Assembly: GCA_012026655.1 (NCBI GenBank)
Contig: JAAILG010001416.1
Coordinates: 1 to 64,000, forward strand
DNA from: Hydrolagus affinis
Lineage: Eukaryota
Length of the DNA stretch: 64,000 nt
Direction of reading: 5' to 3'
In this document: in pieces, positions 2,509 to 59,170 of the stretch
Position numbering within the stretch: position 1 is the first letter of the stretch
Layout: every line of letters begins with the position of its first letter
Notes under the pieces: generated by a model
Databases searched by the model: none
The model's input: only the letters and a program-made list of their open reading frames with translations
What the model was told of the DNA's origin: nothing
Made by a program: the position numbers and the translations under genes

Positions 2509-2518
2509 TATACAGGTA

Positions 2519-6549: not shown

Positions 6550-6585
6550 GGTGACCACTTATACAGATGTTTATTTATTTAACAG

Positions 6586-23077: not shown

Positions 23078-23214
23078 AATTCTGACGAAGGGTCGTGGAC
23101 TCGAAACGTCAACTCACTTTTCCTTTCTCCATAGTTGCCGCCTGACAAAGTTCACAGCGATTTCTGTTTTTGTTTCAGATTTCCAGCATCTGCAGTATTT
23201 TGCATTTCTTTTTC
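23078..23214 (+). mobile_element. Short Penelope-like-element-derived insert with a hammerhead motif and 11-bp TSD
   Basis: Flanked by ccccagaagtc at 23067-23077 and 23215-23225. Homologous to 57009-57143 and to the reverse complement of 53712-53840. Confidence 0.75.
23079..23115 (+). ncRNA. Minimal type-I hammerhead ribozyme motif, catalytic core intact
   Basis: CUGACGA-A-GGGUC-gug-GACUC-GAAA-CGUC: core, 5-bp stem II, loop-less palindromic stem III and a GUC cleavage triplet at 23108-23110. Stem I is weak. Confidence 0.6.
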
Positions 23215-23429
23215 CCCCAGAAGTCGTGTTTTAAGATGTACAGTGCTTTGATTAAACTGTACCTGGAGTCCTGCATACAGTTCTGGTCACTGCAACACAA
23301 AGTGGTTAGCCAGTCTCTAGAGGCAGTGAAGATGAGAGCCACAAGGATGATCACTCAGGGTTCCAGATATGACCTATGAACAATGATTAGACAGACTAGG
23401 GCTATTCAGTCTTCAAAAGAGATGCCTGG

Positions 23430-23845
23430 GAGTAGCCTGATGGTATAGTGGATAGAGCTGTAGTTAATGGAATGCGAGCTAGTTGGGTTTGAATCCTGGT
23501 CTATCCACAGATTGCTGATATTAGCTGCGATTGGAAGGGAGACTAAATTGGCTCCCCAAGGTTAGGGTAAGAGATGACCTGTCAGGATTCCTGCTCCGGG
23601 TTCCTCTTCAACATCTCCTGGTTTAGTGTAACTAGTGTAGCTGATTAGGGAGAGGACAGACTTAGCTGTATTACTTCTGTGGTTCCGGTGGCTGCCAATA
23701 GTCTCAACCAAGGTTCACACGTGGACAGCAGCTATTTGGGCGTCATATCAGAGCACAATCGCTGCCTGTAAAATAGTTCCCACCCTGGGAAGCCAGATCA
23801 GAAGCGAAGAGATTTATGATGATGGAGAGAAAAATAATTGGAAAC
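23430..23845 (+). mobile_element. Ancient unclassified tRNA-headed SINE-like element
   Basis: A/B-box-like head (tggtatagtgg...gggtttgaatcc). Motifs shared with 19620-19890 and 60050-60350 (gaggacaga, ttggg...ca, ggagagaaaaat). Confidence 0.45.
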
Positions 23846-25649
23846 AGTAAAAAGAAAATTTTGAAGTTTGAGAGAAGGGTGTATAGAATTAAAAGATTTT
23901 AAATGGATTTAAGAAAGTAAATCTAGAAAAATACTTTCAGATATGCCAAGGCAGCAACAGTAACATCCACAACAATTTGGATTTATATAGCGCTCTCCAC
24001 ACCAGGCAGCGTCTCAGAGCACAACAAGGAAAGCGCAGGTTCAGAGTTGCAACGGGTAATTTCAGGACAGACATTGGGAGTTATTGCTTTACCCAGAGGA
24101 TAATTAACAACTAGAAATGGTTACCAGAAAGGCTGAGTGCTGGACTCATTTGTTAAAGATCATTTAAGAAACAGCTCGTGCTGTAATGAGAGAAAGGTTG
24201 GTTGGTTATTGTGTAATTACGAGATCCAAAGCACCTTGATCAGATCCTCTCTTACGATGAGGTGTGGATCCAGTTGCCAGGGAGATAAAGGTGGGCTTTG
24301 GGTTGGGGTGTTGCCTTGTGTACAGGAGGAACAGGTGCATGCACACTCTGCCATGTTTGAAGAATGTTTATTACATTTCAGCAGAACAACTATTTTGATC
24401 TCAGAATCTGAGCTCTGACCTCGGATAGGTGAAACAAACTGGTTACACAGTGCAGTGTTGTTTGACACTCGAGCTAGTTTCCTGCTTGCTCTGTTGCAGG
24501 CTAATAGCTAGAGGGGCACTTTGTGGAGAGATAGTCATTTTGGGGGGGAGAAAGCTGAGGTGAAAAAACTGTGAGAATTAAAGGTGTAACATGACATTTT
24601 CAATTCTTGAAACTGTAGCACACATCTTTTGGAAAAATGCTATTTGCTATTCATGAGTTTTATATTGCAATTTTTAGTTCAATGTGTTTACCGGGCTGGA
24701 GGTGGCATAGAAATATATACAGTACTTCAAGGTTGAGATAGAACATTTAGTTGAAAATTATTGTACTAATGTATAATTGTACTCATACAGTATATGAGCA
24801 TTAATTGGTTTATTTCCATCTCTTGTGAACTCTACAGTCTAACACATATTTATCCTGGTTTGCATCAGTCAGCTGTGCTTCACTGATGGTTATTCGGATG
24901 GCTTTACGATTTATTGAATTTCATTGTGTGTTGATTCAACTCGTGTATTTGCATGAGGTTGCAATAAATGTTCTACCAAAAAAATTATATCCACTCACTA
25001 TGTTAGTACAATGCAAACAGGTCAATGTCCATTAATTTTTCCAGATATGTTAATATGCAAAAGCCTTTTTGAAAAAAATTAAGAGTATTTCCTCATCAAA
25101 ACACTTACATAGTGAGTAGATATAACTGAGGTTTCAATAAATGTGTTGCTCAGTGATATATGTTCATTACTTTTAAATGCTTCAATGGAGTAGATGGAAA
25201 TTAATGTGCACAGAGGGAGATCTGCCTTGTATCTAAGTCTCTGATTGTTTAACTAAAATACTCAGAAGTTTATGCTACAATTTTTTTCAAAAAAATTGCT
25301 GAGTAAAGTTTTATTTGACTGGTACATTGGGCATTTTTTAGTCCTTGATGCAGATGAGAGCAGTAAAACTGGGCTGTAGGCCAGCAAGGTTGATTCTGAC
25401 TAACTCAATTGTGATAAAACTTGATGTTTGCTTTTTTATGTTTACGTACCGGAGATTTGTAGTATAAGTAAAAAAAACTGAAGCCATTAGGATTCAGGAA
25501 ATTGCATTATTCAAAAATACTGTGTATTGTATAATTTACAGGTTGGCTTTTTTTGTGTTCATGAATTTTTTTGAACTCGTTCTTGAAACGTTTGTAATGT
25601 TGGTAAGGCAGTAATTTATTGCCTATCCCTGATACCTCTGCAAAGAGAG

Positions 25650-26125
25650 CTTTCTGCACCAAGCTCTGTGACCACATCATTCCCACCCTCGCCTGGCTCC
25701 ATTGACTCCCCATCCCCCAGAGGATCGAATTCAAGCTCCTCTTCCTCACTTTCAAGGCCATTCACAGCCTTGCCCCCTCCTTTCTCTCCGACCTGCTGAC
25801 TCCCTATGAACCTGCCTGCCCTCTTCGTTCAGTGGGCTCCGGTCTACTTCATGTCCCCCATCTGACCCGCCCTACCATCGGTGGACAGGCTTTCACCCTC
25901 TCTTCCCCCACACTCCATCCCACAGTCCCTTTGCCTCGCTTCCTCCCTTGCCTCCTTCAAGGCCGATCTCAAGAGCCTTCAATCATGCCTTCTGCTACCC
26001 TCCTAAACTCTCTCAATCCCCTCCCAACGCTCTTCCTCCACCCTACCCTGCCCCTACGCCTTTGTGCGGGTCCCAACCTAACTGTTCAGTGTCTTGGGAC
26101 GTCCTCCCAACGTGAAAGGAGTTCG
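25650..26125 (+). mobile_element. L2 LINE 3' fragment
   Basis: DHIIPTLAWLH*LPIPQRIEFKLLFLTFKAIHSLAP...GSGLLHVPHLTRPTIGGQAF, plus tail ttgggacgtcctcccaacgtgaaagg. Confidence 0.85.
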
Positions 26126-26229
26126 ATAATATTGACCCAATATATGATCTTCAAAAACCAAAATAGTTTTTTTTAAAGTCTTCAGACTTGATAATTTTTT
26201 TAACTAAAGTAACGAAAGGAACTGACAAG

Positions 26230-26565
26230 TTAGATGGTGGAAGGCTCTTCTCCTTGGTATAGGGATCCATTATAAGGGGATGTAGCCATAAAATCGAAAT
26301 CGATGGTTAGTACTGAGGTCAGGCGCGTTTCTTCGCATAGAGAGAGATTTGCGAAGATGTGATATGTTCTGCCTCCAAAAATTTGTATTGGTGAAACTCG
26401 TAGACATGAATATTTGAAAGAGAGCTGCACAGATACATAGGTAGTATGGTTAGTAAAGGTTATGGTGAAAGGGAGAGGCATTAGAATTTAAAAATCTGCC
26501 AAGGTCTAATAAACTGAGAGAACACAATCAATGGGCTGAGTGGCCTTATCCTGTTTCTATTTTTC
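26230..26565 (+). mobile_element. CR1 3' end
   Basis: Ends atgggctgagtggccttatcctgtttct, a typical CR1 3' terminus. Confidence 0.6.
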
Positions 26566-28276
26566 TTTGTTTCCCAAAGCATCTTAGATAAAAAAAAGAC
26601 AAGAATAAAAAGACATTGCAATCCACAAAATGATTGTGGGACATTGCTGTGCGCAATTATCTGTCGCATTTCTCCCACAAATTTACAGTCAATTAACTTT
26701 ACATTATATTCTGTGAAGCACTTTGAGGCGTCGATAAGATGCATCGATAAAGGTTACGGTATGTGTGTGTGTGTGTACACATACCGTAACCCATCCTGCT
26801 TAAACTCTCAGATTCCCCTCAACCTGGCTAGACTGATTACTTCCTTCTTGAGTAGGTTAAATAATAATAATATTCCTTGCATTTAATATAGCACCTTTTC
26901 ACATCTTCAAAGCATCTCAAAGCGCTTCAAGGAAAATACTGTAAAGTGATTTGACTGTGTATTTGTGGGCAAAATGATAAATATCTACCTGACTATTCTA
27001 TGGTTTTCTGTAGTAGTGCCACCCATAGCCGCACTTTTTTTTAAATATAAAGTGAAAATCTGCCTTTACTGGTTTGCCTACTAGTTGTATGAAAAATGAG
27101 TGGGCCAATGAACTGGTGATTATTAGTGAGGCAATGGCATCACCTCATAAAACGCAGCAACTTGCAAATAGATTTTAATTTCGTACAAGATAGACAATGT
27201 TTGAACTACTGTTTGTACTAAGTGTAAGTGACACTAAGTGCTTTGCAAACACAGCTCCTGTAAGTTACCATTACCTAAAAGTGTATATGGAGACATGGTG
27301 GAGACTTTAATTTTCAAAAATGCTTAGTTGTACACTCAGCAATATTACATCCATTTAACCCAATTTAGTTCATTTTGCTACCTGTTGTTTTTAAGCTTTT
27401 GCTTTGCTTTCAGATTATTAGAGATCTGTCTTCTTTTCTTAAAAATGGCTTTGAAACCTCCTCTGCTTTTAGAAGGTAAAGCTTAAGAGGTTCTACAATA
27501 ATAGACTTGGAAGATTCTGAGAGCAGCTGTCTCATAAATTAATTATTAGTGACAAGTTTATATTGTATAAATCTAAATGAGTTGAGAGTATGGTCCATTA
27601 CCAGCTAACTACATGAGGTATTTGTCATTTTACACTCTTCAGTTATTTTTTAGTGAAGTGTTAAAAACGTAAGACTTTTCTCTTGGATGACATTGAGAGA
27701 TGCTGTCTGATTTTAAGAGAGGTAAAGGCCCATATAAATGTTTCACTAAACCTAAGTGTTACTCATTTGACAGTTATGTGCACTGTCATTCCACGGGCTA
27801 TTTACTTATCGCAATAAACAGATGAAATATGTCAACCACTGTGGTGCCCTTTCAGTGCATCGGGCTTTTTGGACCCTGCAATTTTGCTCCTTGTAAATGT
27901 TTTGCACAGAAATGTTTTGCTACCCTCATACACTATAGAGGAACCTGGTGATGCTTTGGTCAGCTAATGCATAGGAACAGATATTACCAAGCAGGACTTC
28001 TAAGGGAATAATATATGGAGGGATCAGAATAAACATTCCTAGAGAGAATTTATGACTATAAAAATATCAATGTATTTAAATTTTTGAATAGTTCTCGTAT
28101 GTAACTACAGTACAAGGATATTTGTAGTGAAAGTGATACTTGATACTTGGGTCATTGTTAGTTTTGCATTTATTAAAAGTTTGTTTTTAACAATAAGACA
28201 TTGTGGGTTCAAGTGCTCTAGAACACTACCCCATGTGTAGGGCGCTGTATAAATACAAGTTGTTGTAAAGATATGT

Positions 28277-28652
28277 GGATTCCTATAGCTTAGTGGTTAG
28301 AGCACTCGCCTCGCAAGCAACAAGACCTGGGTTCGATTCCAATGAAGGAAACATTGGGCAACTGCTCTTACTCCACCCACGTTTACTTCGCAGTAAAGAG
28401 GAACCTGGTTGTTAGTCAATCGGCGGATCTGGGGGGTAATATTCCCTTTCTGGGGGATAATAATCCCTTCAAAATTAATAATAATAATTTCGTCATTTGA
28501 TTTACAACAGTTTGTGGTACACTGCTGTGTGCAATTGGCTGACCCGTTTTGTTACAAAAATATAGTCAATAAGTTTTGCACTATATCCTGTGAAGCGCTT
28601 TGAGACATCTTGAAGACATGATAAGGCACTGTATTAAATGCACGGTTATTAT
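28277..28652 (+). mobile_element. Full-length tRNA-headed SINE
   Basis: ggattcctatagcttagtggttagagcac...gggttcgattcc (clear A and B boxes), core and tail. Confidence 0.85.
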
Positions 28653-29543
28653 TTTTACATCTCCAAAAATCTGAAACTTTGATTTGAAAAATGTTGTTTG
28701 AATGCACAAAGAGTAACATTGAGGGCAGTTGGAATAAGGGTTTATGTATAATTTTAAACTAGTTTCTTTGGAAAATATTTTGTGCAACCAGATTATTTGG
28801 AGCAGTGCTGCAGTGTATTGTATTTCATGTATTGGTAAACACGTGTTCATTTTATAGTTTGGGATTCACAGGAAATGGGTGTAGAACAGAAGACCAGGGG
28901 CTAAAATGCTGGACTCATCTAGGTCTTGATGTTTTGATGGGAGGACTGCAGAGTTTTTATTGAAGAATTAGGTCAAATGGGCATGCTTCATCTGAACTAA
29001 TCTTGTGAATATTGTTCCACTTGTTTCAGAAAAAATAAACAGAATTGACTAACTACTTGTATCTATCCAATCAAGACAGTCTTGATTGAGGCCTGGGAGC
29101 TTGTGTCTATCTGTCATATTGAGTGAATGCATGTTGTATAGTGAAGACATGAAAGGTGCTACTATATACAAATGTAATTTTGTTGTTGTTGAAGAGACAG
29201 TCATAAAAGTAGAGATAAGAGCATTATGAACTAACAAAAATGGGCTGGTTCTAGTAATTGTAAATAATAATAATCCTTAAATTTGAGTTAGCACTTTTCA
29301 CGTCTTCTAGACACCTCAAAGCGCTTCACAGAATATACTATAAAGTGAATTGACTATATTTAATAAATGCATAATTATATACTGTAACTGGTTTGGACAA
29401 AGCAAAATAACACATAATATAGCTTACCTGAAAATACCAAACAAACATGAATTGAAGTGATAATTTAAATAAATAAATTTTGTACTATATGTGCTCTATC
29501 TTCATTTATGTAAATGTGTTTTTTTCCCCCTCACTATCTACAG

Positions 29544-29775
29544 GTTACCACTCCGGTATTTGTTCCTTCAAAATCATTCGAACTGCTCCATCGGATGTCT
29601 GGTAAAGGCCTTGGGGCTCAGTATCACTTTCCACGTCAGCCTTGCATTTACAGCTCAAAAATGGTGTCTGTTCAGATCATGCTAACTAACACCTCAGACA
29701 AAGAAATAACCAACATTGAAATGGGAGAGCGAAAACTTGCACCAGGAATGCAGATTCACGACTTCCACAAGCTAG
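29544..29775 (+). CDS. AP3B1: AP3B1 coding exon, start of the ear/appendage domain
   Basis: ctacag| acceptor and |gtattt donor. VTTPVFVPSKSFELLHRMSGKGLGAQYHFPRQPCIYSSKMVSVQIMLTNTSDKEITNIEMGERKLAPGMQIHDFHKL. LLHRMSGKG fits beta-3A rather than beta-3B. 232 nt, phase 0 to 1. Confidence 0.97.
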
Positions 29776-29822
29776 GTATTTTTTTAAAAAAGCAGGGAAC
29801 ACAAGCGTAATTTTAATATAAA

Positions 29823-30176
29823 GAATAATAATAATAATCCTTGCATTTGATATAGCGCTTTTCACATCTTATCGACGTCCCAAAGCGCTTCACAGAATAT
29901 GCTGTAAAGTGAATTGACTGTATATTTATGGGCGAATCGTGGCAGCCAATTGCGCACAGCAGCAAACACAAACAGTGTCCCCCACAAACATTCATGGATT
30001 GAAACGACCAATTTTATGATTGTGTTTTTTTTGGACAGATTATTATTAGGCATGTGGAGTAAGGTAACTTGCCCAAGGTTTCGCCCTGACCTGCCTGGAT
30101 TCGAACACAGGTCTCCCCAGCTTGGTCTCCCCAGCTTGCAAGACAAGTGCTCTAACCACTAAGCCACAGGAGCTCC
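29823..30176 (-). mobile_element. Full-length young tRNA-headed SINE
   Basis: Near-consensus reverse complement, with a 14-bp tandem duplication gtctccccagcttg in the head. Confidence 0.88.
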
Positions 30177-31637
30177 ACATTTTATATTTTGTTTCTTCAT
30201 TTTTCTGTACCAAATTTGAATTGTTTTCTAAACTTCATCCCTGGCAGCTTTCCATGTTGATGAAGTTGTTGCTAGCTGATTTCTGCATTTGTTGACTCAA
30301 CCTTATTTTTTTTCCCTCCCTCAAAAGGATCTCCTTGCTCCACTGAGTAGCTCCTTGCTGACAGTCAATAGACTATCCCCCATCTACCCCACAATTTAAT
30401 CTAAGACATATAATTTGAGTTTTGTATATTTATTGTTTTTTTTTGTTTCAGGCCTGCTTTTCTGAGATTTCTTTGCACTAGTTGTATCACCTCCTAAAGT
30501 ATAATGCCGCTCCCCTATTCTCCATTACTCCCGCACTTAAGTTGACATTGAAATGAAAGGAAATGAAGTCCTGACCAGTGGACATATGCACAATTACCGG
30601 CCTGCTGCGTTGTATGGTGCAAAACGTAATCTTTATCCATTGAAACGTGCAGAAGAACTTAATTTCCTGCAATTCAATGCAGTCTTGACCCGTCACCGCA
30701 TACCTAATTACTGGATGCAGTGACGAAGTATCGCTTGCATACTTACTGGCCGCATTCAATTACGCATGTGCAGTTGGGATTATTGATTCAATCTGATTTT
30801 GTACAATTTATACAGTTGGACTGCAACTCAGACTTTGTGTAAGTCATATTAAATGTTATGGCCCTTATGGGAGTTTTACTGTTGTATACAAGTGTTAAAT
30901 ATACTGGGGCTGTGGTGCTCTCTCATGAATCTGATATTAACCTTTTTTTCTAGCTTTTCTTCTCTTTTAGAATAAGGTGCCCCTAATCTTTGTTTGTCAT
31001 GCATCCCTTGTGAGGGTCCAGACAAGCCATCTGTCTTTTAATGAGTCCTGAAAGGTGAATAAAAATAACCGTGCCATCTGATGTCCATCCTTGTCCTTTC
31101 TAAAGACAAGTCATGGATCTGACCTACTCCCCCAATTTCATCAGAGTGGTTGGATCCAAAATGACTTTTAGCTATATATGTCTCAATGAAAAACATTAAG
31201 AGCTAGACCAATATTCTATTGTGACCAAGCTTTGTCTATTCTAGACCAAGCTTTGTGGCCGACTGTTTGAGTTGAGTCAGAATCATATCTGTAATCTGCC
31301 TTGTTCTAAATCTACTTATTTATTATTTAGTTATTTATTACTTTTATTATTTATCAATGCCTTGATAAGGTGCTATATCAAATGCAAGGATTATTTTCAA
31401 GATTACTATATCAATTGCAAGGATATATTTTTCAGTGATGTATTTGCTATTAACAGTGATAATTATCACAGCCCACCTTGCAATTGTCACCTCTTAGGAA
31501 AGTGGATTTCAAATTATGGACGTTGAAGGAGTTTCTTGTCTTTGATTCAATATTGTCTAGATTGGGGAAGCCAAGAAATTACCATATCTTCCATTTGTAC
31601 AAGTGCAAATTTTAACCTGCACTACTTTCTGTTTCAG

Positions 31638-31722
31638 ATTGCCTTAATGTTGGAGAGTCTAAGACAGTTTCAATGGGAATTGACTTCTGTGATTCCACAC
31701 AGGCTGCCAACTTCCAGTTGTG
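31638..31722 (+). CDS. AP3B1: AP3B1 coding exon
   Basis: gtttcag| acceptor and |gtaaga donor. (D)CLNVGESKTVSMGIDFCDSTQAANFQL(C) contains the conserved MGIDFCDSTQ. 85 nt, phase 1 to 2. Confidence 0.97.
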
Positions 31723-32519
31723 GTAAGAGCTCCTCATTTACTGGCTTGTCTCCTTTCTGATGAAACACACATGCAAATATTCTGTTTGAGTTCATGAACA
31801 TAAAGAGAATTAATGCAAGCGATTGAGATGGGGTTGGATTTGTTTTACTGCCTATCGTGTATTTTGTATTCACGTTAACTTTGCTTGCACACAGATTATT
31901 GTGGATGCTCTATGCAGGAGTTTGTAACACTAGTTGCAAATAACATTTTGGGCTAGTAACTAACAGTATAAGTTCTGATGCTTTGTCAATTAAAGCTGCA
32001 ATGTTTAAATTCTATATCAATGCTATATTCATACTGGAGTGTTAAGCATAACAAGGACATTATTACCTTGACGGGGTTCTTCTGCAGTACCACATGTCTA
32101 TCACTAGAGGAAGCTCTACTGTTTCTTTATCTCACTCAGGTATTTTAGTGGTATGCACTAGTACTCTGCATTTCAATAATAATCTATGCATTTGACGTAA
32201 TGTCTTTCACGTCAGGCACTTCATAGGATTTATTGTAAAGTGTAGCAACTGTATATTTTCTGGCCATATATTTAACAAACAAACTGATGTAAAATGCTAT
32301 AAGTGCGGCCTGAACAAGAATGTCTACAAGCAGATTATTCAGGGCGAAGGTTGCTGCACTGGTATTTTAGCACAATGCATGCTATTTTGGCAATTTAGGA
32401 TTGTTTCAGTGAGCTGAAAACAAATTGACATTTAATTGTTAGTCAATTTTATTATATGGTTGTATTATGTTGTATTTTTTCAGTGTTTAAATAAAGAAGT
32501 GAAAACAGCAGGAAAATAA

Positions 32520-33290
32520 GACAACAGTAACAAATTGTATTTGTATAGAGTACTCCCTTTCATATCAGGACATCATTCCATGGCACTGGACAGTCAATGG
32601 TTTGCACACAAGTTGGATATTGGAATCAAGGAAGGGTGGTCGATGAGGGGGTTAGGAGGATTACCGAACTTAAGGTCAAAGAGAAAGATCTAGAGATGGG
32701 CCTTGAAAGAGGCAAAGGGACTCTGTGATTAAGTTCCAGAGAGTGGGGGAGGCTGAAGGCTCAACTGCCACTGGTGGGGTGGGTAGGGTGAGGCCATGAA
32801 GCAGACCTGTGCCCATTGAGCGGATGGAGTAGACAGGTAGGTAAGGTTTCAGTGATCACAGAGTTAGCAAGGAGTAGGATCGTGGAGGGCTTTATAAGGA
32901 CGAGGATCTTGAACCCGATTCTGTAGGGATGGGGACGCAGTGAACCCAGGCGATGGTGGGGGTGATTAGCTTATGGAGCTTGATGCAATCTGCAGCTTGT
33001 AGAAGGAAGAGTTGGGAAGTCCAGCAAGCAGGCAGTTAGCAAAGTCAAGCCTGGACTTAATGAAAGCGTGGATGAGGGATATTCAGTGGCCTGAGGGGAG
33101 AGGTGGTAATGGAGACAAGCAACGTTGTGGAGGTGGGGGAACGATGAAAAAAGTTGTGAGGCTTAAAGGACAGTTGAGGGTCGAATAAGACACAAAGGTT
33201 CTGTACTTGCTCGGTGAGGTGGAGAGTGCATCCATTAACAGCTGTCAGCGACTGAAGTGAGGAAGCGATGACAGGAGCCAAACAGAAGGA
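32520..33290 (-). mobile_element. L2 LINE 3' fragment, old
   Basis: Reverse-strand VQNLCVLFDPQLSFKPH motif and acaacagtaacaaattgtatttgtatag tail. Confidence 0.75.
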
Positions 33291-35149: not shown

Positions 35150-35490
35150 ATCTCTCAACAAATTCAATTGATCTTTTACCAGTGTAATCACAATTACTCA
35201 CCTCCTTAATTGGCCTGCCCGAAATCAGAAAATGGAAACTGATCGGCAGCGTTCCGATCAATAGATTCAGAGCGATACAAGCGAGGGCAGGGAGATGGAA
35301 GTAATAGCGAGATCAATCGGCTAGAGGTGTCAATCATTGTGCGTCGTTTCGCATGACAAACATTTTGCTTGCCTGTAGTGGGATCTCTCTTACAATGTGT
35401 GGACCACCTCAGATCTGGGAAGAAATAAATGCATAAATTCCTGAGATGGATGTCGCTGTATATAATATCAGCATCTGAAATGTTTATAAG
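35150..35490. promoter_or_regulatory. Putative conserved non-coding element or enhancer
   Basis: Repeat-free, CpG-retaining, with homeodomain TAATT, ATCAAT and reverse TGATTGACA motifs. Conservation is inferred, not measured. Confidence 0.45.
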
Positions 35491-42440: not shown

Positions 42441-43630
42441 GTGAGTGCATGCTTTTGCAACTATCTTGCGCCAATTTGTCTGCAACTGGGAGTTGTCTTG
42501 GCCAAAAGCGGCTTACAAACCTGGGGTTAAAAACTGGCTTGTCAAATGGTGGTGTTTATAGACTTATTCAGGTGCTATTTTTACTGTTCAGGTCAGTGAA
42601 GTAAATATCTTCCATTTTTGCTACTTTGTGTTTGCTTCGTAAACTGTGAATCCAGCAGCCTTGGCTATTACCTGAACATTTTGTAAAGTACAGTACAAAT
42701 TGTAGTTCAAATATATTTTAACTGTTTGTTTGGGTAGAGGTATGTGGAAATTGAAAATCTGCTGGCCCTCTTTTAACATTTGTTTGTTTAACATTTGTAA
42801 AGTACAGAACTGGCAGTTTATTTGTGACTTGAGCGTCTCAAAACACTTCAAGAAAGATGGGAATCGTCAAGCAGAGAGGAAAGGGGGTGGTTGAAGGGTG
42901 TTGACCAAAGTCACGGTCAAAGCGATGCATTTTAAGAGGATTTTGAAGACAATTCCTTTGGGTGAAAGAACCTGTGGCTGGTACAGCAAACAATACAATA
43001 ATTCTGAACTAGCTGGGACTGAGCTGTTTGGTTCTCAAATCGTTCTCTCTTTCACAAAAGTAAATGCAGGTTCTTGTGTGTCCATGGACATTTGAGCTAA
43101 TTGTCGTGACTGCTGCTTGTATAGACTATCATGCTTTCGGAAATGTTAATACTCCATGGTTGTAAAATCCTAAATGTAGCAGCTTAAATTTTTCGTGGCT
43201 TTAAAATCATTTTGAAAACTTAAGATCATGAGGCTCTTAGGCTTTAGTTTCTCTGCATATAATAATTTGCTAACAACTGCCCTTCCAGTTTTTATAATCC
43301 TCTCTCCATTACCCCTTTATCCCCTTCTCCCTCATGCATACATTTCTTCTTCAATACATTGATGCTTTTTAGCTTCACTTACAGATTCCAGTTAGATCCC
43401 TATTCTCGGCACCCTCTGCCTAAAGACATTCCTCCTAATTTCCCTATTAGATCTATTATATTTATGCCCTCTTATTTTGAATTGACAACAAGTGGAAACG
43501 GCCTACCAACATGCAGTTCATTGATTCCATTTAAAATCTTAAACATCTTAAAATCATGATTGTAATTACATTGAAGAGATTTATCATTTTTGAACAGCTT
43601 CTTGCAATTGTCATGTTAAGTCTTGAGTTT

Positions 43631-43692
43631 TGTGTGTGTGTATATATATATAAAAATATATACACACACACATATATATATATATATACATA
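43631..43692. repeat. Compound (TG)/(TA)/(CA) microsatellite, quasi-palindromic
   Basis: tgtgtgtgtgtatatatata...tatatacacacacacatatatatatatatataca. Confidence 0.85.
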
Positions 43693-45215
43693 CAATAGTT
43701 CCATGTGGACTTTGGAGGGGCTGAGTGATGTACAGTATAAACTGGGAGCAGAGAGACTTGCTTGATAGAAAAAGGTGATTAATGACAACTCGGGTTGCAG
43801 TGTCTCTATGGGCATTCTAATGTGTTTTCCTGGATTCTGGGTGGATATACACACATTTATCTTTACATTTGAACAGCAATAATTAAAATCTTCCAGAATT
43901 ATTAGCTTGTTGATTGACTTTTGTCACCCCTTGCTGGAATGCAGTTACAACATCTCCTTCCAACCCAAAATGCACAACCTGGTTTTACAAAAAATGGTTG
44001 TCATTATCATCTCTAAATAAACAATGACCTTTCTATTTTATCTTAAATGGGTAATGGACTCAAAAAAAATAACGTTTAGTACACAATTGCCATATTATCA
44101 TGAACGTTTAATAAGGATATTAGCCGAGTTGTATTCCAATTTATTCAATTGTCACTGTTAATTATTATGTTCTGACAATTGATTGACGTATTCCATAATT
44201 TTTCATTTAATTTTTTAAGACAATTCAAGCTATTGTATATTAGAGTATTGAATATAGATAGCTGTGCTGCTCAATGCAGTGTCTTATTTAATTATATCAT
44301 GTCTTATCTCAAAAATATGCTAGCTATTATAATTATATATAATCATATATAATGTTTTAATTATATAATGTCTTATCTCAGAGATGTGATATATCAAATG
44401 CAAGGATTATTATAATTTATTATAATGGTAGAGCCAAAGCAAATAAATTTGGGTATCAAGGTAATGTCTGACATGATTCATAGCACGCTTGTTTTCCGCC
44501 CGATGGAATAAGTCACAGCTTCAAGATATCTCCCAGCCCAACGATTCCTTACATCCACAGCCACTAGTCACCTCTCAGCCCAACTGCCTGGTCCCTTATC
44601 ATGTTTATATGGTGAGAGTAGTATAGCTCCTTGCCTTGTTGTGGCTCTATCTTGAGAGGTTTTAAGCTTCAGTTGGACTAAAACTTTTAGTTCTGTAACT
44701 TTTTGACAAAGTGAGTAGCACTTAAGCCTTGCTGTCTGGTTAATTTAGTCCTGATTTCCCAGTTTGAAGATTTTCGTGAAGGAGAAATGTTCTTGATACT
44801 GTATTATAGTAATTATGTACTGGAATGTTATGAATTTGTTGCCTACAAAATGCTGCAGTCATTGAATGTTACAGTGTATTCTGTGAAGTACGTTGAGAAC
44901 ATCCTCCAGATGTGAAAGGTGCTATATCAAATGTAAGAGTGATTTATTATTATATTTGCCTTTTCTACCTGAGAAGAAAATGTATCAAAGAAAATATGGC
45001 AACAGATTGATCTTGTTTGTAAATTATAAAAGTACTTTTTAAAATGGGTGCTTGTTTTTACATCTCTGAGATAATTTCACATAAGTTTTTATAATGCTAT
45101 TAGATAGAATTAAAGGAGAATAATTACCAAATTAGTAACATGATTCTGTGCATGAACAATTCTACTTGTTTTAAATTATGTGGGAATGCATCAAATTCTC
45201 TTTGTTATGTTATAC

Positions 45216-45315: not shown

Positions 45316-45609
45316 CCGTCCCACCATCGGAGGCCGGGCCTTCAGTTTCTCTGCTCCCACCCTATGGAATTCTATCCCCCAATCCCTCCGTCTCGTTTCT
45401 TCCCTTTCCTCTTTCAAGGCCGGTTTGAAGACTTTCCTCTTCGACCGTGCCTTTTGTTCCACCCCGAATTCTTCGACCTCCCCTTCATGTTTCACCCCTG
45501 CCCAAACACTCCCCTCCCAGCTCGGGTCACGCGCCTCCTGTGCAGCGCCTTGGGACGTCCTCCCGACGTGAAAGGCGCTCTATAAATGTAATTTGTTGTT
45601 GTTGTTGTT
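45316..45609 (+). mobile_element. Young L2 LINE 3' end, ORF2 end intact
   Basis: RPTIGGRAFSFSAPTLWNSIPQSLRLVSSLSSFKAGLKTFLFDRAF and a (gtt)n tail. Near-identical to 1-214. Confidence 0.9.
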
Positions 45610-48944: not shown

Positions 48945-48956
48945 CCACTAGGGGGC
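48945..48956 (+). promoter_or_regulatory. CTCF binding motif
   Basis: CCACTAGGGGGC matches the CTCF core CCAC(C/T)AG(A/G)(G/T)GGC and lies in unique AT-rich DNA. Confidence 0.6.
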
Positions 48957-51900
48957 AACACTACTTCTGTTTCTGCTGAGGGTTTTAGATTTTTAGAATT
49001 TAATTCTGTAGCAACACTGGTTTTGAAATTTATACCAGTTTTGTTCTTGTAAATGTAGTACAACTGTTCTACATTTTCCCAGGTCTAAATCATTATTTTG
49101 TAAATGGATGATATATGAATGTTTGTGTTGATGTAAATGAATAGCAACTGATTTAGTAAGAAATACAACTGAACAATTTTTTAAAAATCTTCTAAAAATC
49201 CATTCAATTGGAAATATTGACGTGTTGGTATTGTGTAAATTCATTGCAAATGAAAACACACCAATAAATGCAACTGGATGTTTTCGATAACAGGCATGGA
49301 ATTTAAGAAATGCAGATTTGGGAAACTTTGTTGGCGTATGAAGTTTGTGTAATATAGTGCTATCGTTGTTGCAAAACATAATTTGTTTGAACTAATTCTG
49401 CTCATTCCAAATTATAAGACTTCACAGCCAGCCCTATATTTGATGTTTGTATAAATGTTTTAAATCATGACATTTCTCAGCAGGTCTGGGGTAAGTTTGT
49501 TCCAGCTCTACTTAATTCTGTTGCAGACAGCACAGCCCCTTCATTACTCTGGGCTCCCTCTTTCATAAAGCTGCTCTTGTCTTGCCTGCAGCCTTTGTGT
49601 GGTTTCATTCAACATTTGTCAACTTTGGGCTAATTATTTTTGTACAACTAGGGCAGGGCAATGCATCCTGCGATCGTCTTTCTTGCTAATAGGATTGTGT
49701 CTGCTTCAGCAGTCGGTAATTGAAGGATTCATGTAAAAAAAAGTGTTGCCCGAGTAGATCATTGCCACAGCTGTTCATAGCCAACAAATAGTGCAGCGAG
49801 GGCATAGATTCACAGACAGGAGATGCTATAAACAAAATTCTTAATGTCCTTTAATGTATATTTCAGAATCTAAAAGACTCAGAAATGAATGGCTAGTTGG
49901 ACTGTAAAAAGGCTGTTTTTTAAATGATATTAGTAGAAACCCTGTGCTTTAAAGGATAACTGTTAATAAAATTTGTGCAAGAAAATATTACAGTTGGCAA
50001 GTAGTCGTATTTAATATAAAACACCAGTTCAGGTTTAGCATTGCACATAGATTTGTCAAACATGAATATGATATCTTGAGTGTTACGAAGTGAACTGTCC
50101 ACCTTTTGATGGGATAAAGCAGTTTTGTCAGTTTTTATAAATGCTGTGTTTATGGCTGCAAGTCTGATTCACTTGATGGAGCTTTACATCTTACACACTG
50201 CACCAGCATAAAGGAGGACAATATTTAACCACTTTATATACAAAAGAAGATACTAAGCATAACTTGAGAAATATAGCTATTCTGTTTTTATGTGGCTTCT
50301 AGTGGTCTGTGTATTTCTCAGAGAGGGGAAGGTAATAAAATGTTAGACTGCCAAACCATCAGGTCACCAGTTCACATCTCAGCTTTGACTGACATTCACT
50401 TGCTTGTGCTCATTGAATGAGGTTTGCCTGTTCTCAGCTGGCTTGCTGGATGAGGCACTGCACAGCATGCCCTAAAAGCTGATCTTATGTATAGGGAGAC
50501 CAGACTGTCTCAACTCCCCAACTGAAGGCAGGGATGGGGGTGAAGGGAAGGAAATGAAAGCAATGGGAGACCTTAAATGAAGGAAAAGCAGCAAAGATGT
50601 ATCTTGATCATAAATTCTCAATGTTTGCAGTTTATCCTATTCTATCATCCTGGTTTTGACATTGAGCATTTGAAGCTTAAGTCATGGCCTTGTACGTCAA
50701 TAAGAATCTTGAAGTGGAGACTTTGATAGATTACTTTCAAACTGTGTAATTACTGTAAAAGTAAAGGCATGAGTGATGTGAGTGAGCAACAACAGTTCAA
50801 AATGAAGTGCCTTGGACAAAATAAAAATTTAGACATTGGGTAATAGGATAATATGAGTACTGACTGAAAAGTATATATTACTGTTCCTTGATTTTTTTTA
50901 TTGATAAGTTTTTTTAAATATAAATTGATAGCTTGTGCACATATGGTATTTCAAAACATTGAAATGTGATCCTTTGTGCCTAAATCATCAAAGCAAATTG
51001 ATATACAAACAGTTCAATAATGTTCATTCTTGCATTTTGGTAAAGTGCCTTCTCACATCATCAAGTAATGTTAAACTTCATCGCGCATTTTTGCATTTGA
51101 AGTGATTGTATATTTGTAGGGTTAAAAATGGGTTACCGTTTATCCAGACCGGCATTTTCTTTTAAACTATTAATGTAACTTACACAATGAACTAGTCTGA
51201 GATGTTATCCTGTGTGAACAACACTTTATAAATGCAAGTAAAATAGATGTTTTGCTTATCTAAAAATAGAGACTCACTCAGTGCTTTACCATAATTATCG
51301 TTTGCAGCTAACATTAGTTTTTTCTAAGTTTAAAAAAATAGTGTTGTATTCAAACGCAATGTGTGGGTGAGTTGCAAGTTTCAAATTAAGGTAGATTTGA
51401 AGTCCAGTAAAATAAATGTGTTACAGTGAGCACATTTTGTTTATTGGGTGAGCTGGTCCAATGGTTCAAATTTTTTTTTAAAAGTCCAGAAATGGATTGA
51501 TGATGGATCAGAACTAATAATAATCCTTGCATTTGATGTAGCGCCTTATCACATCTTTCAGACGTCTCAAAGCGCATCACAGAATATACTGCAAAGTGAA
51601 TTGACTATGTTTTATGGGCAAAATAATTGTAAAATGCCCTGATCACTCGACTTCACCTTGTCACCAGCGAAACTGGTATGAGTCGAGCCTCAGGGCCATA
51701 ACCCACAAATCATTAAACTTGAATCTGTTTTTCTTAGTTGATATCACATTGTGTTGTTCTTGCGGTGGGGAAAGCATGGCTCCGGGCTGTAATGTGAATA
51801 ACTCTTAATTGAATAAAAAAGATGAGCATTATTGACAGTCATCCTCCCAGCTGGCACACTGATTTCTGCTGGATTTTAGCTTGTTCAGGAGATAAAATAA

Positions 51901-53711
51901 ATTTCTAGTGGCTGCATTAACCAGAGTAATGGAGACCTCTTGCCTGGTACATTGAGTAGATTTAATACTGTTGATAATATTCAAGCTGGGCTATAATGAG
52001 TCATTTGAAATGGAAGAGCCCAAGGAGCTGTTGTTTAACTATGGCCGTATCCTCAGTGGCTTTAAATGTAATCCTGCAGCAGATTACAGCATTAGACTGC
52101 TTTGAAATTTTGCCAAATGTTATAATAAATGAAACAAAGGTTCCTTGGTTGCAAAAAAAAAGTACCAATTTCTCTTGTTCTTGCAGATTTAGGTTTAAAT
52201 TTCAGAACAATACACAGCACGTTGCTATGGTAAACTGATCTGAAGAAAATCGCACTTCATTTAAGGAGAATCTGTTTCCTGCTTAAGTAACTAATATTCT
52301 AATTATGGCTGAAGAGAAAGTTTTTGATTATCTCCTGATAAACTCCCTCTCTTATGGTGATGATAATTAAGCATTTCCCTGAGGACTCCCACGGCACTGT
52401 ATAAGGCCCACACTAATTGTCAGACATGAGACACTGACCAGTTGGTTTGCTGTTCAATAACGGACAGCGTGCTGTCAGCCCAGTGGTGTTTTATGCTGAA
52501 GCATTGTGAGCTGTTGTCAGGGCTAACGGGGCCTATTGTGGCTAAAGATGTTGTGCAAATTGAGGCAGATGGCTCCGATTCAGACACGTGTCATTCAGAA
52601 AAGGGAAAATGAGATTGGCCCGCAGAGTGGGGTCACTGCAGGTCAGGGACTGCTCTACACTGGTTAGTGTTTTCAAAAGACCATGTGCGACAAGTTTTTT
52701 GTTTTGCAGTAACAAAAAAGTGTGATTCTCCGGTTGGGGGAGGCGGGTGGGTGGCTGTGGCCGCTGTGGTGTGCTTTCACTTGGCTCCCCCAGGGGTCTT
52801 GCTTTGCATGCAGAAAGAATTAGCAGGATTGACAGAAGTCTATTGTGGCTCAAATGGCTTTTCAGTCAATTACAATGCTGAAGAGGACAGTTTGGCTTTT
52901 AATTCCATGTAATTAACAGATTCCCAGTGTCTTGGAATTCAGTTGTGCAAGATTAGGCTCAAAGTAAAACAAAAGTTTGCTGTATTCTTCTAGCAGGTAT
53001 GCCTTACAACCAGTGTTCAGTTGAGGAATGAAGCAAAACCAAAGTTCAGATCTTTGTTTGACAGCTTCACAGAATATTTGACCAAAATCCTAATGTAATC
53101 CTCAGCTTGTATTATGTAGCCTTTATGAACAGTATTACCAATGGCGTTTGATGCATTTTCTTTGTAGATAAGCCACTTGCGTCTGGTTGAAACTCTTCTT
53201 TGCTGATCATGATCGCTCTTTCTTGTGCTATCTATTGCACTCACACCATTTGCGTCTTTTGGTTAAGCCATTATTTTTATTTTCAGTCATTGAATAGTAT
53301 TACAACCCAACATTAGTTTAAACTTTTCAGGGGAAAATATTATTGTATTGTTTTTAATTGTTGTAATTTGATGATTTTTTTTAATTAATTCCCTAGCACC
53401 GTTTATTTTCCACAACCAGAGCTGGAGTGCTCTCTCACACCTCTGTTTGTGGCAGCTGCTGAAAGATAACTTTGAATGTTTGGAGGAGATTGACCCTCCA
53501 GTGTTCGTTTCCTCTGTGTATCGATGAAGTTTGCCTTCACTTGATACCTCTGATGGCACAGCTGAAATTAGGAATACAAATGCAATGCAAAAGTATCGGA
53601 ATAAACCCACATGGTGACATTAAATTATTGCTGTTTATGAGTTGCATATTTCAAATTACAATTGTGCTAATTATTTTGAAATATTGTAAAACACAGATGT
53701 GCATTACTCCA

Positions 53712-53865
53712 AGGAAAAATACTCCAGATGCTGGAAATCTGAAATAAAAAGAGAAATTGCTGGGATCGCTCAGCAGGTCAGGCAGCATCTATGGAGAGAA
53801 GAAAGTTAACGTTTCAGGTTGATGACCTTTTGCCAGAACTACATCAGAAGTCTGATGAAAGATCA
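53712..53865 (-). mobile_element. Penelope-derived insert with a decayed hammerhead motif and a short inverted end
   Basis: Minus strand reads AGUU-CUGGCAA-AAGGUCAUCAACCU-GAAA-CGUU-AACU. Stem I is perfect and the core is mutated. An inverted ctgatgaaagatc lies at 53852. Confidence 0.7.
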
Positions 53866-54479
53866 GGAGATTAGGAATTATTGTATAAAGGTGTTAGGAA
53901 CAAATCTAGGAAACCTTAACTCAATGTCCAAGAAGCATCTGGATCAGATCAGATTAGGCCTGGAAATATCAAGGAGATAGGTACTGTCTAGTTAACCACA
54001 ATAGACTGCTGACAGGACTAATGAGACTCTGTGGATTGACCAACTCTCTACGTTTTCAACCGTGAGGCTGCAAAACATTAATATTGTGGTAATAAAACAA
54101 CTCCAATATCAGGGTAGCTTGATTATAAACTCTTGCCCCCAAAATATAAAGCAAACAAATTTAAATACAAGTAAATAATTTTAGATGTCCTTGCCCTCTT
54201 TTTTTTGCTTCTGCGTTTTGTTCCACATCTTATTTTTCATTAAATAATTTTTTAAGCATTCTGCCTAGTTTCAAATAGGTTGCTCTTTGCAGATCTAAAA
54301 ACATGATCCTTATTCATAAATTATTATCCTGTAGACTCCACAAGCTACACTTCAGAAGTCAGAAATATTACATTTATTTCTGTTTTGTAGTTTTACAGTT
54401 AACTAAGCCAAAAATATTTTAAAGGCTTTTTATTAAATAACAAATCTACAATACACAAGATCACACACTATCAACTTGA

Positions 54480-54960
54480 ATTAAAGAGTTTTAGAATAAA
54501 CATGGAGGACCTCCATATGTGGATTGGCAAATGGACGTCTTGAAGGAAGTAGAAAGTTGCTGATCTCATGGTGAAATCTATAAGTGCTTGGCATCTTGTC
54601 AAGTGAACTTGACCATGGTGCTTCAAGGGTTAATATTTTTAGCATTCCATCGGTGTGGAAGCTACACCTGAGGATTGTTGATGGTGAATGCTCACTCAAT
54701 CTATAAAAAAGTAAGATGTGAACCTGGAAATTATAGACCAGTTATCCTGACATCTGTAGTTGAGAAAGATGCTTCGGTGCTTTTTATGGGATGTAGTCAG
54801 TGTACGTGTAAAGTTAAGAATGCACAGGCTATAAAGAGTAGTCAGTATGGTGTAAGAAGCAAGTTTACTACATTCTTCGAGTCATTAAATTGGTGGAGCG
54901 GGGCAATCCAATGGAATTCATTTACCTCAAATTTCAGAATATTTAATAACACAAATTAGC
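54480..54960 (+). mobile_element. Old CR1 ORF2 fragment
   Basis: IYKKVRCEPGNYRPVILTSVV is the CR1 RT N-terminal motif. Confidence 0.75.
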
Positions 54961-55244
54961 TAGCTATGTTGAAAACCAGGTTGGCAATAGAAACAGGAGT
55001 TGGAGAGAAAGGGGCATTTGTGAGAAATATGCCTGGATTTGGGGCCCATCAGTTCAATGTTTCTATATTATTCAACTGTAGAGCGTTCACAGCTAACATT
55101 GATCCATTGCAAACTGTCTTGTGCATATTTTCCAGCTGTTGTCTGTGGTAGCAATGTCTTAAATAGCCAGAACCATTTGCTTCTCTGATTTGACCCTTCC
55201 AACCAATTTAGGCCAGTTATGATGACTGTACAATGTAGAAAACA

Positions 55245-55412
55245 ATAATTTGGTCACTCAATCCATGACTGTTTGTGGGACACTGCTGTGTGCAATTGGA
55301 TGCTGCGTTTCGCCCACAAATATACAGTCACTTCACTTCACAGTATATTCTGTGAAGCTCTTTGAGACGTCTAGAAGACATGGAAAGCGCTATATCAAAT
55401 GCAAGGATTATT
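55245..55412 (+). mobile_element. SINE core and tail, near consensus
   Basis: ggtcactcaatccatgactgtttgtgggacactgctgtg...gcaaggattatt. Confidence 0.85.
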
Positions 55413-55749
55413 AATAGCAATATATGGATTTAATTAGTTTAATCAATTTTGAACAACAATAATTTGCATTTATATTGTGCCCTTCGCACCTGGTACACTA
55501 TCGAGCACTTAGCAATGACGCAGCTTGACGCTGAGCCAGGGAGAAAGGGGGGATGACAATAGGAACTGTCACATCGGAAGGTCTCTGAACACAGAATATC
55601 GTTGCTAATTAAATAAACTGGTTGCATCATTTTTCCCATCTTGACAGTAAAAGTGATACTGGTTTTCTATGTTGCATCTATATGGAGAGTATTTTAGTGA
55701 AATTATCTTTATTAGTTTTTTTATTTTAAAAAAAACATTTGTTTTTCAG

Positions 55750-55903
55750 GTATGCAGCAAAAACTGTGAGCAGTGGGGCGTTGGTGCTGATCACAATAGA
55801 AGTGAAGGAAGGGTCGACAGTTCAGCTCAGTGTAAACACGGAAAAAACTGTGATTGGCTCAGTACTGCTTCGGGAGCTGAAATCTGTGCTGTCTCAGGAG
55901 TGA
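55750..55903 (+). CDS. AP3B1: AP3B1 terminal coding exon, up to the TGA stop
   Basis: gtttttcag| acceptor. (R)YAAKTVSSGALVLITIEVKEGSTVQLSVNTEKTVIGSVLLRELKSVLSQE* matches the recalled human C-terminus NTEKTVIGSVLLRELKPVLSQG. Confidence 0.97.
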
Positions 55904-56644
55904 CTGGATACCCCTGGAACCAGGCCAGCTGACCTCTCACTGCTATTGCCTTCATCAATACTGTAGTTATTATAGTATAACTTCCATCCAGCTGTGAAGT
56001 GAAAACTCTTTACCGACAATCTTGTCTCTGACTTTGAAATGCTGTTATCGACAATGCTGCAATCTGTATTCTTTTGCATATCATTACCAACAAAGTCCCT
56101 TGCCTAAATCTGAACTCTTGACTTTAGAGATTTCGCCAAATCATTTGTCCTGTTTTGATGTGTACCAAGGTATTCTCTGAATGAATAGATGTTGGAGAAT
56201 GTGCGTTAATATATTGCTGGAACATTATACCCTTTGTTCTACTTAAATGTACTTCTGAGATGTGTGCAGGACCTACTTTTTATCCCTTTGAGCCCTGCAG
56301 TGTTTCATGTGGTATACAAAATCTTTGACCTAAAATGTTGATATAAATGCACAAAAATAATATCTATGTGTATAGCTATTACCTTAGTTGTGTTTTGGAA
56401 GCAAAACTGGAATGTTGTTAGCTGGTAAAATCATTAATGGTGGAAAATTCGCTTGACCTTCCCAGCCGTCCAAATGAATGGAATCTGTGAATTACTGGTT
56501 GTATCCCAATTTATATTAAAAAAAAGCAGGTAATGTTCATCCAAAGAGAAATATCTGTCTTGCCAAAAAAAATCACTGAACAATACATGCTTTTACATTT
56601 ACACAATCTCCTTTTAGCCAGTTGGATCACAGGACACTCTACCC

Positions 56645-56650
56645 AATAAA
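56645..56650 (+). terminator. Candidate polyadenylation signal of AP3B1
   Basis: First AATAAA I found after the stop, about 740 nt downstream, followed by GT-rich sequence. Alternatives are ATTAAA at 56515 and AATAAA at 57967. Confidence 0.5.
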
Positions 56651-56996
56651 GCTTTGTTGGATCTGCCATCTGGCAAGTGTTGATTTCCCAATCTCACTCG
56701 AGGATTTGAGATAGGAAAGACGTAAACCCCTGTCTTTACGTAGGAGAAAGTCACTTCAAATCTGTTCTACACTTTCCAAAGGCTGGTGTGTGAGTTGACG
56801 TTTTGTAGACCTGTGAAGGGCTCACTGGACCGTGGGATGGGACATGAAAGAATACAAGAGGCAGAGCTGTCCTTCTACTCTTTTCCCCCCTCTGGTTTTG
56901 TAATGTATAGAAATCATGATCTCAGTAAGAGCTCTAAATTTCCCCCTTTCAGTATTTGCACTGACGGTAAAGCTGCAGACATGCCAAGAAGTGCTG

Positions 56997-57143
56997 AAAC
57001 AAAAACAAATTCTGATGAAGGGTCTTGGACCCGAAATCTTGACTCACTTCTCCTTTCTCCATAGATGCTATCTGACCCGCTGAATGTTCCCAATGAATTC
57101 TGTTTTTGATTCAGACTTCCAGTATCTGCAGTATTTTGCGTTT
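56997..57143 (+). mobile_element. Penelope-derived insert with a hammerhead motif and 15-bp TSD
   Basis: tgccaagaagtgctg (56982-56996) and tgccaagaaatgctg (57144-57158) flank CUGAUGA-A-GGGUC-uug-GACCC-GAAA-UCUU. Confidence 0.75.
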
Positions 57144-59170
57144 TGCCAAGAAATGCTGTTTGTTTAAACTGTCACTGCTGATTATCGGAGCTTTAATCGA
57201 TTCAAAATATCCTCTATTTGCATCATTTAATCTTATGTGTGGGGGGTGGTATTGTTTGTACTAAAATTATCATTTTGTTCTAATAGAAATCAGGAGGGGA
57301 AATATTACAAATCCTGTTGGTAGCTTCTCTACTTCAAAGTAAAAGCAGGGAGCTGGTGTTTGTCAAACAGCTTGTATGCATCTTAATCTTGATTATGTGC
57401 CAGTATCTCCAATTACTATTGTAAACCTACCGAGGATAGCCACTAACAGCACGTGGAGGTGCTTCTTATGTTGTCCGTCTCTTCCTCCTACATTTGCTTT
57501 GGAGGTAAAATGTAAAAGTGAGTTTATTAAATTTCCAAATGGTTAAACCAGTTCCCATTTCAGAAATGCTTCTTCAGTGCTGAGGAGCTAAAATTGGGTT
57601 TGGGGTGTACGCTGTAATTATTTGATGATTAGGATTCCAAACAGTATTTTTCCCTGTGTTCTTGTGTAGTTGTTACATTGGGGACTTGTGTTTGCTGGTG
57701 TACAGCTGCTTCAGTTGATTTACAGTACTGCGGCTGTGGCCAGTCATAAATAAATCCTCTTATATAGTTGTTATGAACACCTGTTAGATCATCTGTCAGC
57801 AAAGCAGTGTTCACATTTATCATGGTGCGGTAGTTATTTTACCACAATCCATTTACAGTGGACTCTGCCTCCATCACTGTATTACTATTACTGCACCATA
57901 ATCGCTCGTTTCCACTCCGTGTACAACTTGCAGATAAAAGATTTCAGTACTTGGCAAAATTTCATAAATAAAGGAGCAGTTCACTGCAGTAAAAGTTTAT
58001 TTTTGTCATCATTTGTCACACTATTATACCATAAATCAAATGGTATAGTGCTATCCGTGGCGCAGACAGCTCTGTCAGCCTAGACATGGAAATGGTCGGT
58101 TTCTCTGTAGATGAGATGGCATGTCTTTTGACTTTAACAGGCTGATGGCTTTTCTCACTCATTTGATTTTATTGGATTTAAAACCTGGAGGATTATTGAA
58201 GCTGGTGAACTATAGAGACACCTCAGAGAACATTCATGGCATGATAATTAAACCACCCTTGTTATTAGCACATTTTCCTTCGTAAACAAAGCTACTGCCT
58301 TAACAAGTCAGATTTACTCAGAATTGCTGATGGCTGATTAACCATATGCACTAGAGTGGATGTATATGTCGAAGAATGGCATTAAAAATAAAATAATAAT
58401 TCTTGCATTTGATATACCGCCTTATCATGTCTTCAAGATGTCTCAAATTGCTTCACAGAATATACTCTAAAGTGAATTGACTATATTTTGTAAGCAAAAA
58501 TTGTGCTTGATGCACAAGATAATGCGAATATTTCAAATGTTATATCTTCATATCTAACTGTGCAAAAAAATCTTTCTTTACTATACGTCTTATTCATGTT
58601 TTTGAAATCTTTTTTTTTACCCTTCATTTGTTTAACACTTTGTCATACTCAATTTACCAGCCACATTTACGACAATAGAGTTCTGCTGTATTTACTGGGT
58701 GCAATGTGAATGTACCATATTTCACTACTGATTCTCCCACGATTCATCTAGCAATCCTGCAATTGTAATATCATTGCATTTCTAGAGAACATATTGTACA
58801 CTTCACTGCAGGCAGCTGTCTATATAGCTGTTGAAGTTACTGGAGATGCATATATATCAGCTATATAGACAGTGAACTGTAGAATATTTACTTTAGGAAG
58901 GCAGAAGATGTTATTATAAGGCTCAGAATTGCTGCATGAAACGTGGCACATTTACATTGCACCTATTATATAGGCTAACATCCCCTGCTGAATCAACTCA
59001 GTTTATCAGTCCATTGACACTACTCCATAAATGTATATTTGTAAAAGTCAATGTCCTGTGCCCCCATAACCTGCTTGTAAACAAACTGTTAGCGTTGCAC
59101 ACAGAACATGCCTATAATAGAATTCTTCCAACATTTTAAAACACAGTAAACTTTTCCTGATTTTTATGTT

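Follow-up and report, generated by a model that had tools for sequence, protein, structure and literature searches.

Hammerhead-headed repeats of Hydrolagus affinis are probably inserted 5' ends of a Penelope-like element RNA

Three copies of a short non-coding unit headed by a hammerhead ribozyme motif lie in a 64-kb stretch of the Hydrolagus affinis genome (assembly GCA_012026655.1, contig JAAILG010001416.1, positions 1 to 64,000; hereafter the window). The unit is the terminal repeat of a Penelope-like element (PLE), and its many dispersed copies are probably inserted 5' ends of the PLE RNA, that is, run-off complementary DNAs (cDNAs) from reverse transcription primed inside that RNA. Element coordinates here take the C that opens the hammerhead core (CUGANGA) as +1 (window positions 23082, 53836 and 57012), which puts the predicted hammerhead cut after +29.

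One 21-mer of the unit occurs exactly 9,039 times in the genome, and a control 21-mer not at all. A blind sample of sixty 10-kb stretches of long contigs (599,300 bases in total) held 33 copies, 11 of them with the exact 21-mer; extrapolated to 1.11 Gb, this gives about 60,000 copies or fragments of the unit. Copy ends were mapped in a sample anchored on an exact 21-mer at +52..+72, a site chosen to avoid bias. This sample comprises 96 of the first 100 places listed, at 88 distinct loci, and leans to younger copies through its requirement for long contigs and an exact match.

The 3' ends fall mainly at two sites, 45 of 96 at +90..106 and another 45 at +123..136 (six elsewhere), and the interval of about 32 nt between them corresponds to the known 30-40 bp tail of PLEs. 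The 5' ends pile up just before the motif, with 46 of 96 at -7..+2, 34 at +3..+44 and 16 farther upstream. Among the 62 copies that reach -7..+2, 46 stop inside it where 6.1 were expected, a stop rate of 12.7% per nt against 1.0% downstream and 1.1% upstream. The pile-up was seen again in 14 of 29 matches of a query without the motif, in 15 of the 33 blind copies and, by hand count, in 67 of 100 pattern matches. Units linked to the open reading frame (ORF) described below are consistent with this hotspot where they start at -3, -2 and +4. The units do not start at the predicted cleavage site but some 34 nt upstream of it, and near the cut (+30) only seven 5' ends were counted against 5.7 expected. 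Since ends do not pile up there, the predicted ribozyme cut does not set the unit boundary, contrary to one of two origins offered in an earlier note on this DNA, made from the sequence alone.

Most copies are solos, which outnumber those linked to an element body (80 of 96). Target-site duplications (TSDs) of at least 10 bp flank 10 of 22 hotspot solos that lack an inverted partner, against 12 of 462 controls built from mixed flanks, and a TSD was present in 12 of the first 30 matches against 19 of 870 controls. Because the solos carry TSDs, they are insertions in their own right and not leftovers of recombination.

An inverted partner was present at 46 of the 88 loci. The arms of these pairs follow a rule: 40 of the 46 combine one short arm with one tailed arm, one is short-short, none is tailed-tailed, and five have an arm of some other length. 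Copies without a partner comprise 23 short, 17 tailed and two of other length. A tail at one end only has been described qualitatively in the parts of Craig et al. (2021, PMC8557442) and Arkhipova et al. (2013, PMC3846280) used here.

The parent element was found upstream of the motif. A sequence of varying length, common to seven of the first 30 matches (the window copy included), leads into decayed coding DNA with reverse transcriptase (RT) motifs including DKG and YIDD, a CX4CxxC linker in several copies, and a GIY-YIG domain with two internal cysteines. Pfam profiles matched three of seven decayed frames (RVT_1 at E 6.5e-4; GIY-YIG at E 9.6e-4 and 0.054), and a search of PDB sequences with the RT frame gave no match. 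The closest intact proteins are about 900 amino acids long with up to 52% identity (E 1e-83), and five of the six scanned contain both RT and GIY-YIG; one locus matches residues 198-883 of such an intact relative. In most of the 29 loci with a body, the unit comes after the ORF end; among 29 loci examined that contain the ORF start, its tail adjoins that start in 12; and at locus L245 the order is body, unit, ORF start. With the unit following the ORF end and its tail abutting the ORF start, it is the pseudo-long terminal repeat (pLTR) and 5' untranslated region (5'UTR) of a PLE with RT and GIY-YIG, present both after the ORF and before it. Penelope ends were one of two origins offered in the earlier note, which also proposed a search for full-length RT plus GIY-YIG partners sharing the terminus; decayed coding DNA of this kind lies upstream of the unit, and that origin is borne out by the continuity of the unit with the GIY-YIG end of the ORF on one side and the ORF start on the other. 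The hallmarks of endonuclease-bearing (EN+) PLEs are all there: a single ORF with RT and then a C-terminal GIY-YIG, the same repeat at both ORF ends, an optional tail, an inverted 5' copy, and TSDs of variable length. By the CX2-5CxxC criterion in the part of PMC8557442 used here, the linker points to a parent of the Neptune/Nematis type, which we do not divide further. An intact full-length element was not found in a search that was not exhaustive.

The copies fall into three subfamilies (A, B and C) that differ in stem II of the hammerhead and downstream of it. Body-linked copies of all three have an A/T-rich box at -33..-27, and an initiator-like word sits at the hotspot with its A at -4, the TATA-like box lying about 28-30 nt upstream. 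A simple scheme would account for the unit. The RT would prime inside the RNA at +99 or +131 and run off the RNA 5' end after about 100 or 132-135 nt, and the run-off stub would then be inserted as a solo; the hotspot would be the RNA 5' end, at the transcription start. Head-to-head pairs would form if both target strands each prime one arm, one per internal site, and longer copies may come from read-through RNA or from a template jump. The hammerhead would be a passenger only, carried along because it lies within the first 33 nt of the RNA, with its cut not defining the unit. Having neither the TATA-like box nor the ORF-proximal sequence, a solo is likely a dead end. At two loci (L266 and L270, read by eye), a second unit begins at about -4 amid ORF N-terminal sequence, 250-330 nt past the first tail, an arrangement to be expected of a template jump.

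Several points weigh against this scheme. The -7..+2 window was picked after inspection of the data; the hotspot covers some 5 nt, with microhomology blurring its exact position; and among six ORF-linked units extending to the head, three start elsewhere, at +24, +28 and -127. The Pfam scores from this genome are all below the curated cut-offs, and no Pfam RT or endonuclease family was detected in six of nine frames (four of the seven longer ones and both short endonuclease frames). The best TATA match, a TATAAA-like word, occurs in only two subfamily B copies, and for the TATA and initiator reading as a whole we rely on a consensus and spacing that we presume to be the usual ones. RNA data showed no pile-up of starts or ends, in polyA single-cell reads or contigs from other organisms, these being unsuited libraries with reads on both strands. 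An extra G at the start, as might derive from a cap, was seen in 15 of 31 copies of a mixed set but in only 5 of 14 of an unbiased set, over a background of about 26%, and this line was dropped. Finally, the sequence upstream of the hotspot also reads as a 3' splice site, and in the part of Cervera and de la Pena (2014, PMC4209133) used here the intron of the D. virilis Penelope has its 3' end at the 5' end of helix I.

The units could therefore be of Penelope origin with a hotspot made otherwise, by a splice acceptor (CAG at -5..-3) or by RT stopping at a folded or protein-bound hammerhead; we hold this unlikely. A pyrimidine tract and the CAG do lie exactly at the hotspot in body-linked copies, and base frequencies of solos at -5..-3 are like those that we take to be usual at exon ends. 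Splicing should nevertheless join solos to an upstream part of the element, which is the case in 0 of 127. The left TSD lies within 9 nt of the core in 11 of 14 near-flank matches, and most (7 of 10) lie near the unit in a second set; TSDs this close leave no room for an exon, and several of the longer gaps between unit and TSD are, by eye, inverted stubs. As for an RT stop, stem I does begin right at the hotspot, but a structure would be expected to block the enzyme before it, not after it. On the sense strand, four pyrimidine tracts that end in AG and resemble splice acceptors lie at -5, near +52, near +103 and immediately ahead of the ORF start; copies bearing them in host introns could be exonised.

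Within the run-off scheme, a further step can be imagined, which we regard as quite unlikely: the stubs might be the Penelope counterpart of retroviral strong-stop DNA, with an RT primed in the 5'UTR having to transfer from the RNA start to the RNA 3' end. At that 3' end, cleavage by the hammerhead of the downstream pLTR would create a terminal redundancy of 33 nt (-4 to +29). Transfers that fail would end up inserted as solos, and a dimer priming one target strand per internal site would yield the pairs of short and tailed arms. If true, the PLE hammerhead would have a function, and the formation of pseudo-LTRs would be accounted for.

The motif itself consists of a 4-bp stem I, the core, one unpaired A, a 5-bp stem II, GAAA, and a palindrome replacing stem III. 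The heads of relatives have the parts of a minimal type I hammerhead (core CUGANGA, GAAA, stems I and II, the palindrome and the unpaired base before stem II), whereas the window copies are degenerate. Among 258 heads, selected by a pattern biased toward hammerhead structure, stem II pairs in 221-250 and stem I in 180-232. The base pair at the bottom of stem II is G-C in 167 and A-U in 37, a compensatory change, and the core is intact in 108. The compensatory change, taken with a core intact in so few heads, indicates that selection worked on the parent elements and that inserted copies decay. An Rfam scan of the window gave no hammerhead family at E<=1, as expected for so minimal a motif. Stem II pairs as the earlier note claimed and forms in predicted folds of units 1 and 3, not significantly above shuffled sequences; the same goes for the whole-unit fold.

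The other origin offered in that note was an independent non-autonomous family, like a retrozyme or a short interspersed element (SINE), whose RNA the hammerhead would excise for separate amplification. A copy number in the tens of thousands, the majority of solos, a discrete length, TSDs of their own and the covariation of stem II among subfamilies would all suit it. So would one internally deleted derivative (L271, G000:C24479; one copy seen), in which a unit is followed by some 137 nt from the ORF start, some 135 nt of body and a second unit; with its two heads and promoter-like region, it is a candidate true non-autonomous Penelope. We nonetheless consider this origin very improbable and largely refuted. 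The tandem arrays that the note proposed to look for are absent: a same-strand second unit lies within 1.5 kb at 2 of 59 loci, and neither is an array. The cut site is not where copies end, few cores are intact, and the motif is of the minimal PLE type, which was inactive as a monomer in the part of PMC4209133 used here. Nor do solos form a lineage of their own, as each subfamily holds solos and ORF-linked copies with the same or nearly the same majority sequence and the same divergence. Mean identity to one reference is 0.925 for solos (n=91) and 0.924 for body-linked copies (n=53) in subfamily A, 0.890 (n=13) and 0.892 (n=9) in subfamily C, and 0.869 (n=23) and 0.871 (n=3, one probably misassigned) in subfamily B; in subfamily A, the lowest column p between the two classes is 0.004 among 98 columns, a number that limits power. 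The marks of a retrozyme, namely head-to-tail repeats, a unit running from cleavage site to cleavage site, and amplification apart from the RNA of an autonomous element, were thus not found.

We give hardly any credence to a reading without any special boundary, in which Penelope insertions were 5'-truncated at random or recombination left solo pLTRs behind. It is true that 50 of 96 copies have their end elsewhere than in the hotspot, with stops spread evenly at about 1% per nt, and that the parts of PMC8557442 and PMC3846280 used here report both 5' truncation and solo pLTRs in PLEs, but the stop rate is twelve-fold higher in one 10-nt window, in four samples, and TSDs sit flush with solos that have no upstream part of the repeat. 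The earlier note had named, as the outcome that would overturn its view, a plain Penelope terminus with random truncation points and no independent amplification. The unit is indeed such a terminus, without amplification of its own; its truncation points, in contrast, pile up before the motif.

In the window, the three units are mutually homologous (73-80% pairwise identity, E 2e-31 to 3e-17, compared within the window), as the earlier note had it, and lie where it placed them (Table 1). Both TSDs it reported, of 11 and 15 bp, are present; no TSD lies flush with the ends of unit 2. The starts that it gave for units 2 and 3 took in inverted stubs of the same element. Carrying these short stubs, units 2 and 3 read as miniature head-to-head insertions. 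All three motifs are damaged: unit 1 has one mismatch in stem I, the core of unit 2 lacks CUGANGA, and unit 3 has lost the palindrome after GAAA. At 52166-52190, 25 nt match the unit in its short-end region (E 0.003) and are perhaps a fourth, tiny fragment.

Table 1. The three window units and their parts, in window coordinates
Feature	Position	Strand	Basis
Unit 1: solo pLTR/5'UTR copy, subfamily A, start -4/-5, tailed 3' end	23078..23214	+	
Unit 1, predicted minimal type I hammerhead	23082..23114	+	sequence, fold, pair counts in relatives
Unit 1, hammerhead parts	core 23082-23088; stem II 23090-23102; GAAA 23103-23106; predicted cut after 23110		
Unit 1, optional PLE tail of about 32 nt between both 3' end sites	23176..23207	+	bimodal 3' ends in 90/96 copies
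Unit 1, left TSD, 11 bp, exact	23067..23077	+	
Unit 1, right TSD, 11 bp, exact	23215..23225	+	
Unit 2: subfamily B copy, start -4, catalytic core broken	53712..53840	-	
Unit 2, inverted stub of element head in front, putative head-to-head remnant	53851..53864	+	compared by eye with copies of subfamily B
Unit 3: subfamily A copy, start about -2, tailed 3' end, core 57012-57018 intact	57010..57143	+	
Unit 3, inverted stub, 14 nt, short tail-less element end; last 3 nt overlap the TSD	56994..57007	-	
Unit 3, left TSD, 15 bp, 1 mismatch	56982..56996	+	
Unit 3, right TSD, 15 bp, 1 mismatch	57144..57158	+	

The rest of the window is rich in other repeats. A tRNA-headed SINE-like repeat is far more abundant than the unit, with more than 20 fragments (e.g. 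6237-6549, 19135-19450, 29825-30172 and 55258-55418), and Rfam tRNA matches at 6235-6303, 19386-19448, 28281-28350 and 59472-59544 are heads of this repeat. By eye, several fragments resemble the 3' end of an ORF of long interspersed elements (1-213, 22106-22659, 25706-26176 and 45316-45609), presumably of the L2/CR1 group. Rfam microRNA matches at 9555-9616 and 43619-43707 are spurious, falling on (TA)n/(TG)n microsatellites.

The family itself is ordinary, in that Penelope ends with minimal hammerheads have been described across animals. Our motif shares with the pLTR hammerheads in the parts of PMC4209133 used here the 4-bp helix I, an extra base between position 9 and stem II, the lack of helix III and the palindrome after GAAA. 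Those minimal motifs are mostly single copies tied to truncated PLEs and, like the units here, are spread genome-wide with some close pairs on opposite strands. Stem II, at 5 bp, differs, as does the copy number, which exceeds the 2,000-9,000 motifs given there; a fixed start just before the motif is absent from the portions of text examined. The likeness to EN+ Neptune and Nematis PLEs, again as far as the excerpts of PMC8557442 and PMC3846280 go, extends to the single RT ORF with its DKG motif, the CX4CxxC linker, the C-terminal GIY-YIG with two internal cysteines, partial tandems, the inverted 5' copy, a 30-40 bp tail at one end, TSDs, and TATA and initiator-like words in the pLTR. Solos are put down in those excerpts to recombination or deletion, whereas many here have their own TSDs. 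We found no paper on this family or on a 5' pile-up at a PLE start; Repbase, Dfam and supplements may hold it. The boundaries -2, +98 and +131 and the inverted joints recur as loose ends in reads and contigs of other organisms, so the pattern is common to relatives.

The Poseidon element of Anolis (PAc) offers a comparison in vitro (Frangieh et al. 2024, PMC11167929), having likewise two internal RT starts that flank the tail. With PAc, both target strands are extended, the hammerhead cut is unneeded, and uncut RNA is the main template. PAc differs in that it belongs to another clade and its ORF begins in stem II, not after the tail as here; it also shows no difference between strands in start site, whereas 40 of the 46 genomic pairs here unite a short arm with a tailed one. 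Metazoan non-LTR retrozymes, in the parts of PMC7229834 and bioRxiv 10.64898/2026.07.22.740005 used here, are similarly non-coding and PLE-related, with a type I hammerhead and longer TSDs. Unlike our units, which carry minimal motifs and occur as scattered single copies or in head-to-head pairs, they form tandem repeats of 150-450 bp with mostly canonical motifs and have circular RNA.

The units amount to a large in vivo record of the PLE replication cycle, itself unsolved. Three fixed coordinates (one 5' stop and two 3' starts) and the arm rule predict the RNA start and the products to be seen in vitro, and so make the PLE copying cycle testable; the insertion record also argues against cut RNA as the template. 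Annotators should note that a hammerhead repeat of 140 bp, however abundant, is not necessarily a SINE or a retrozyme.

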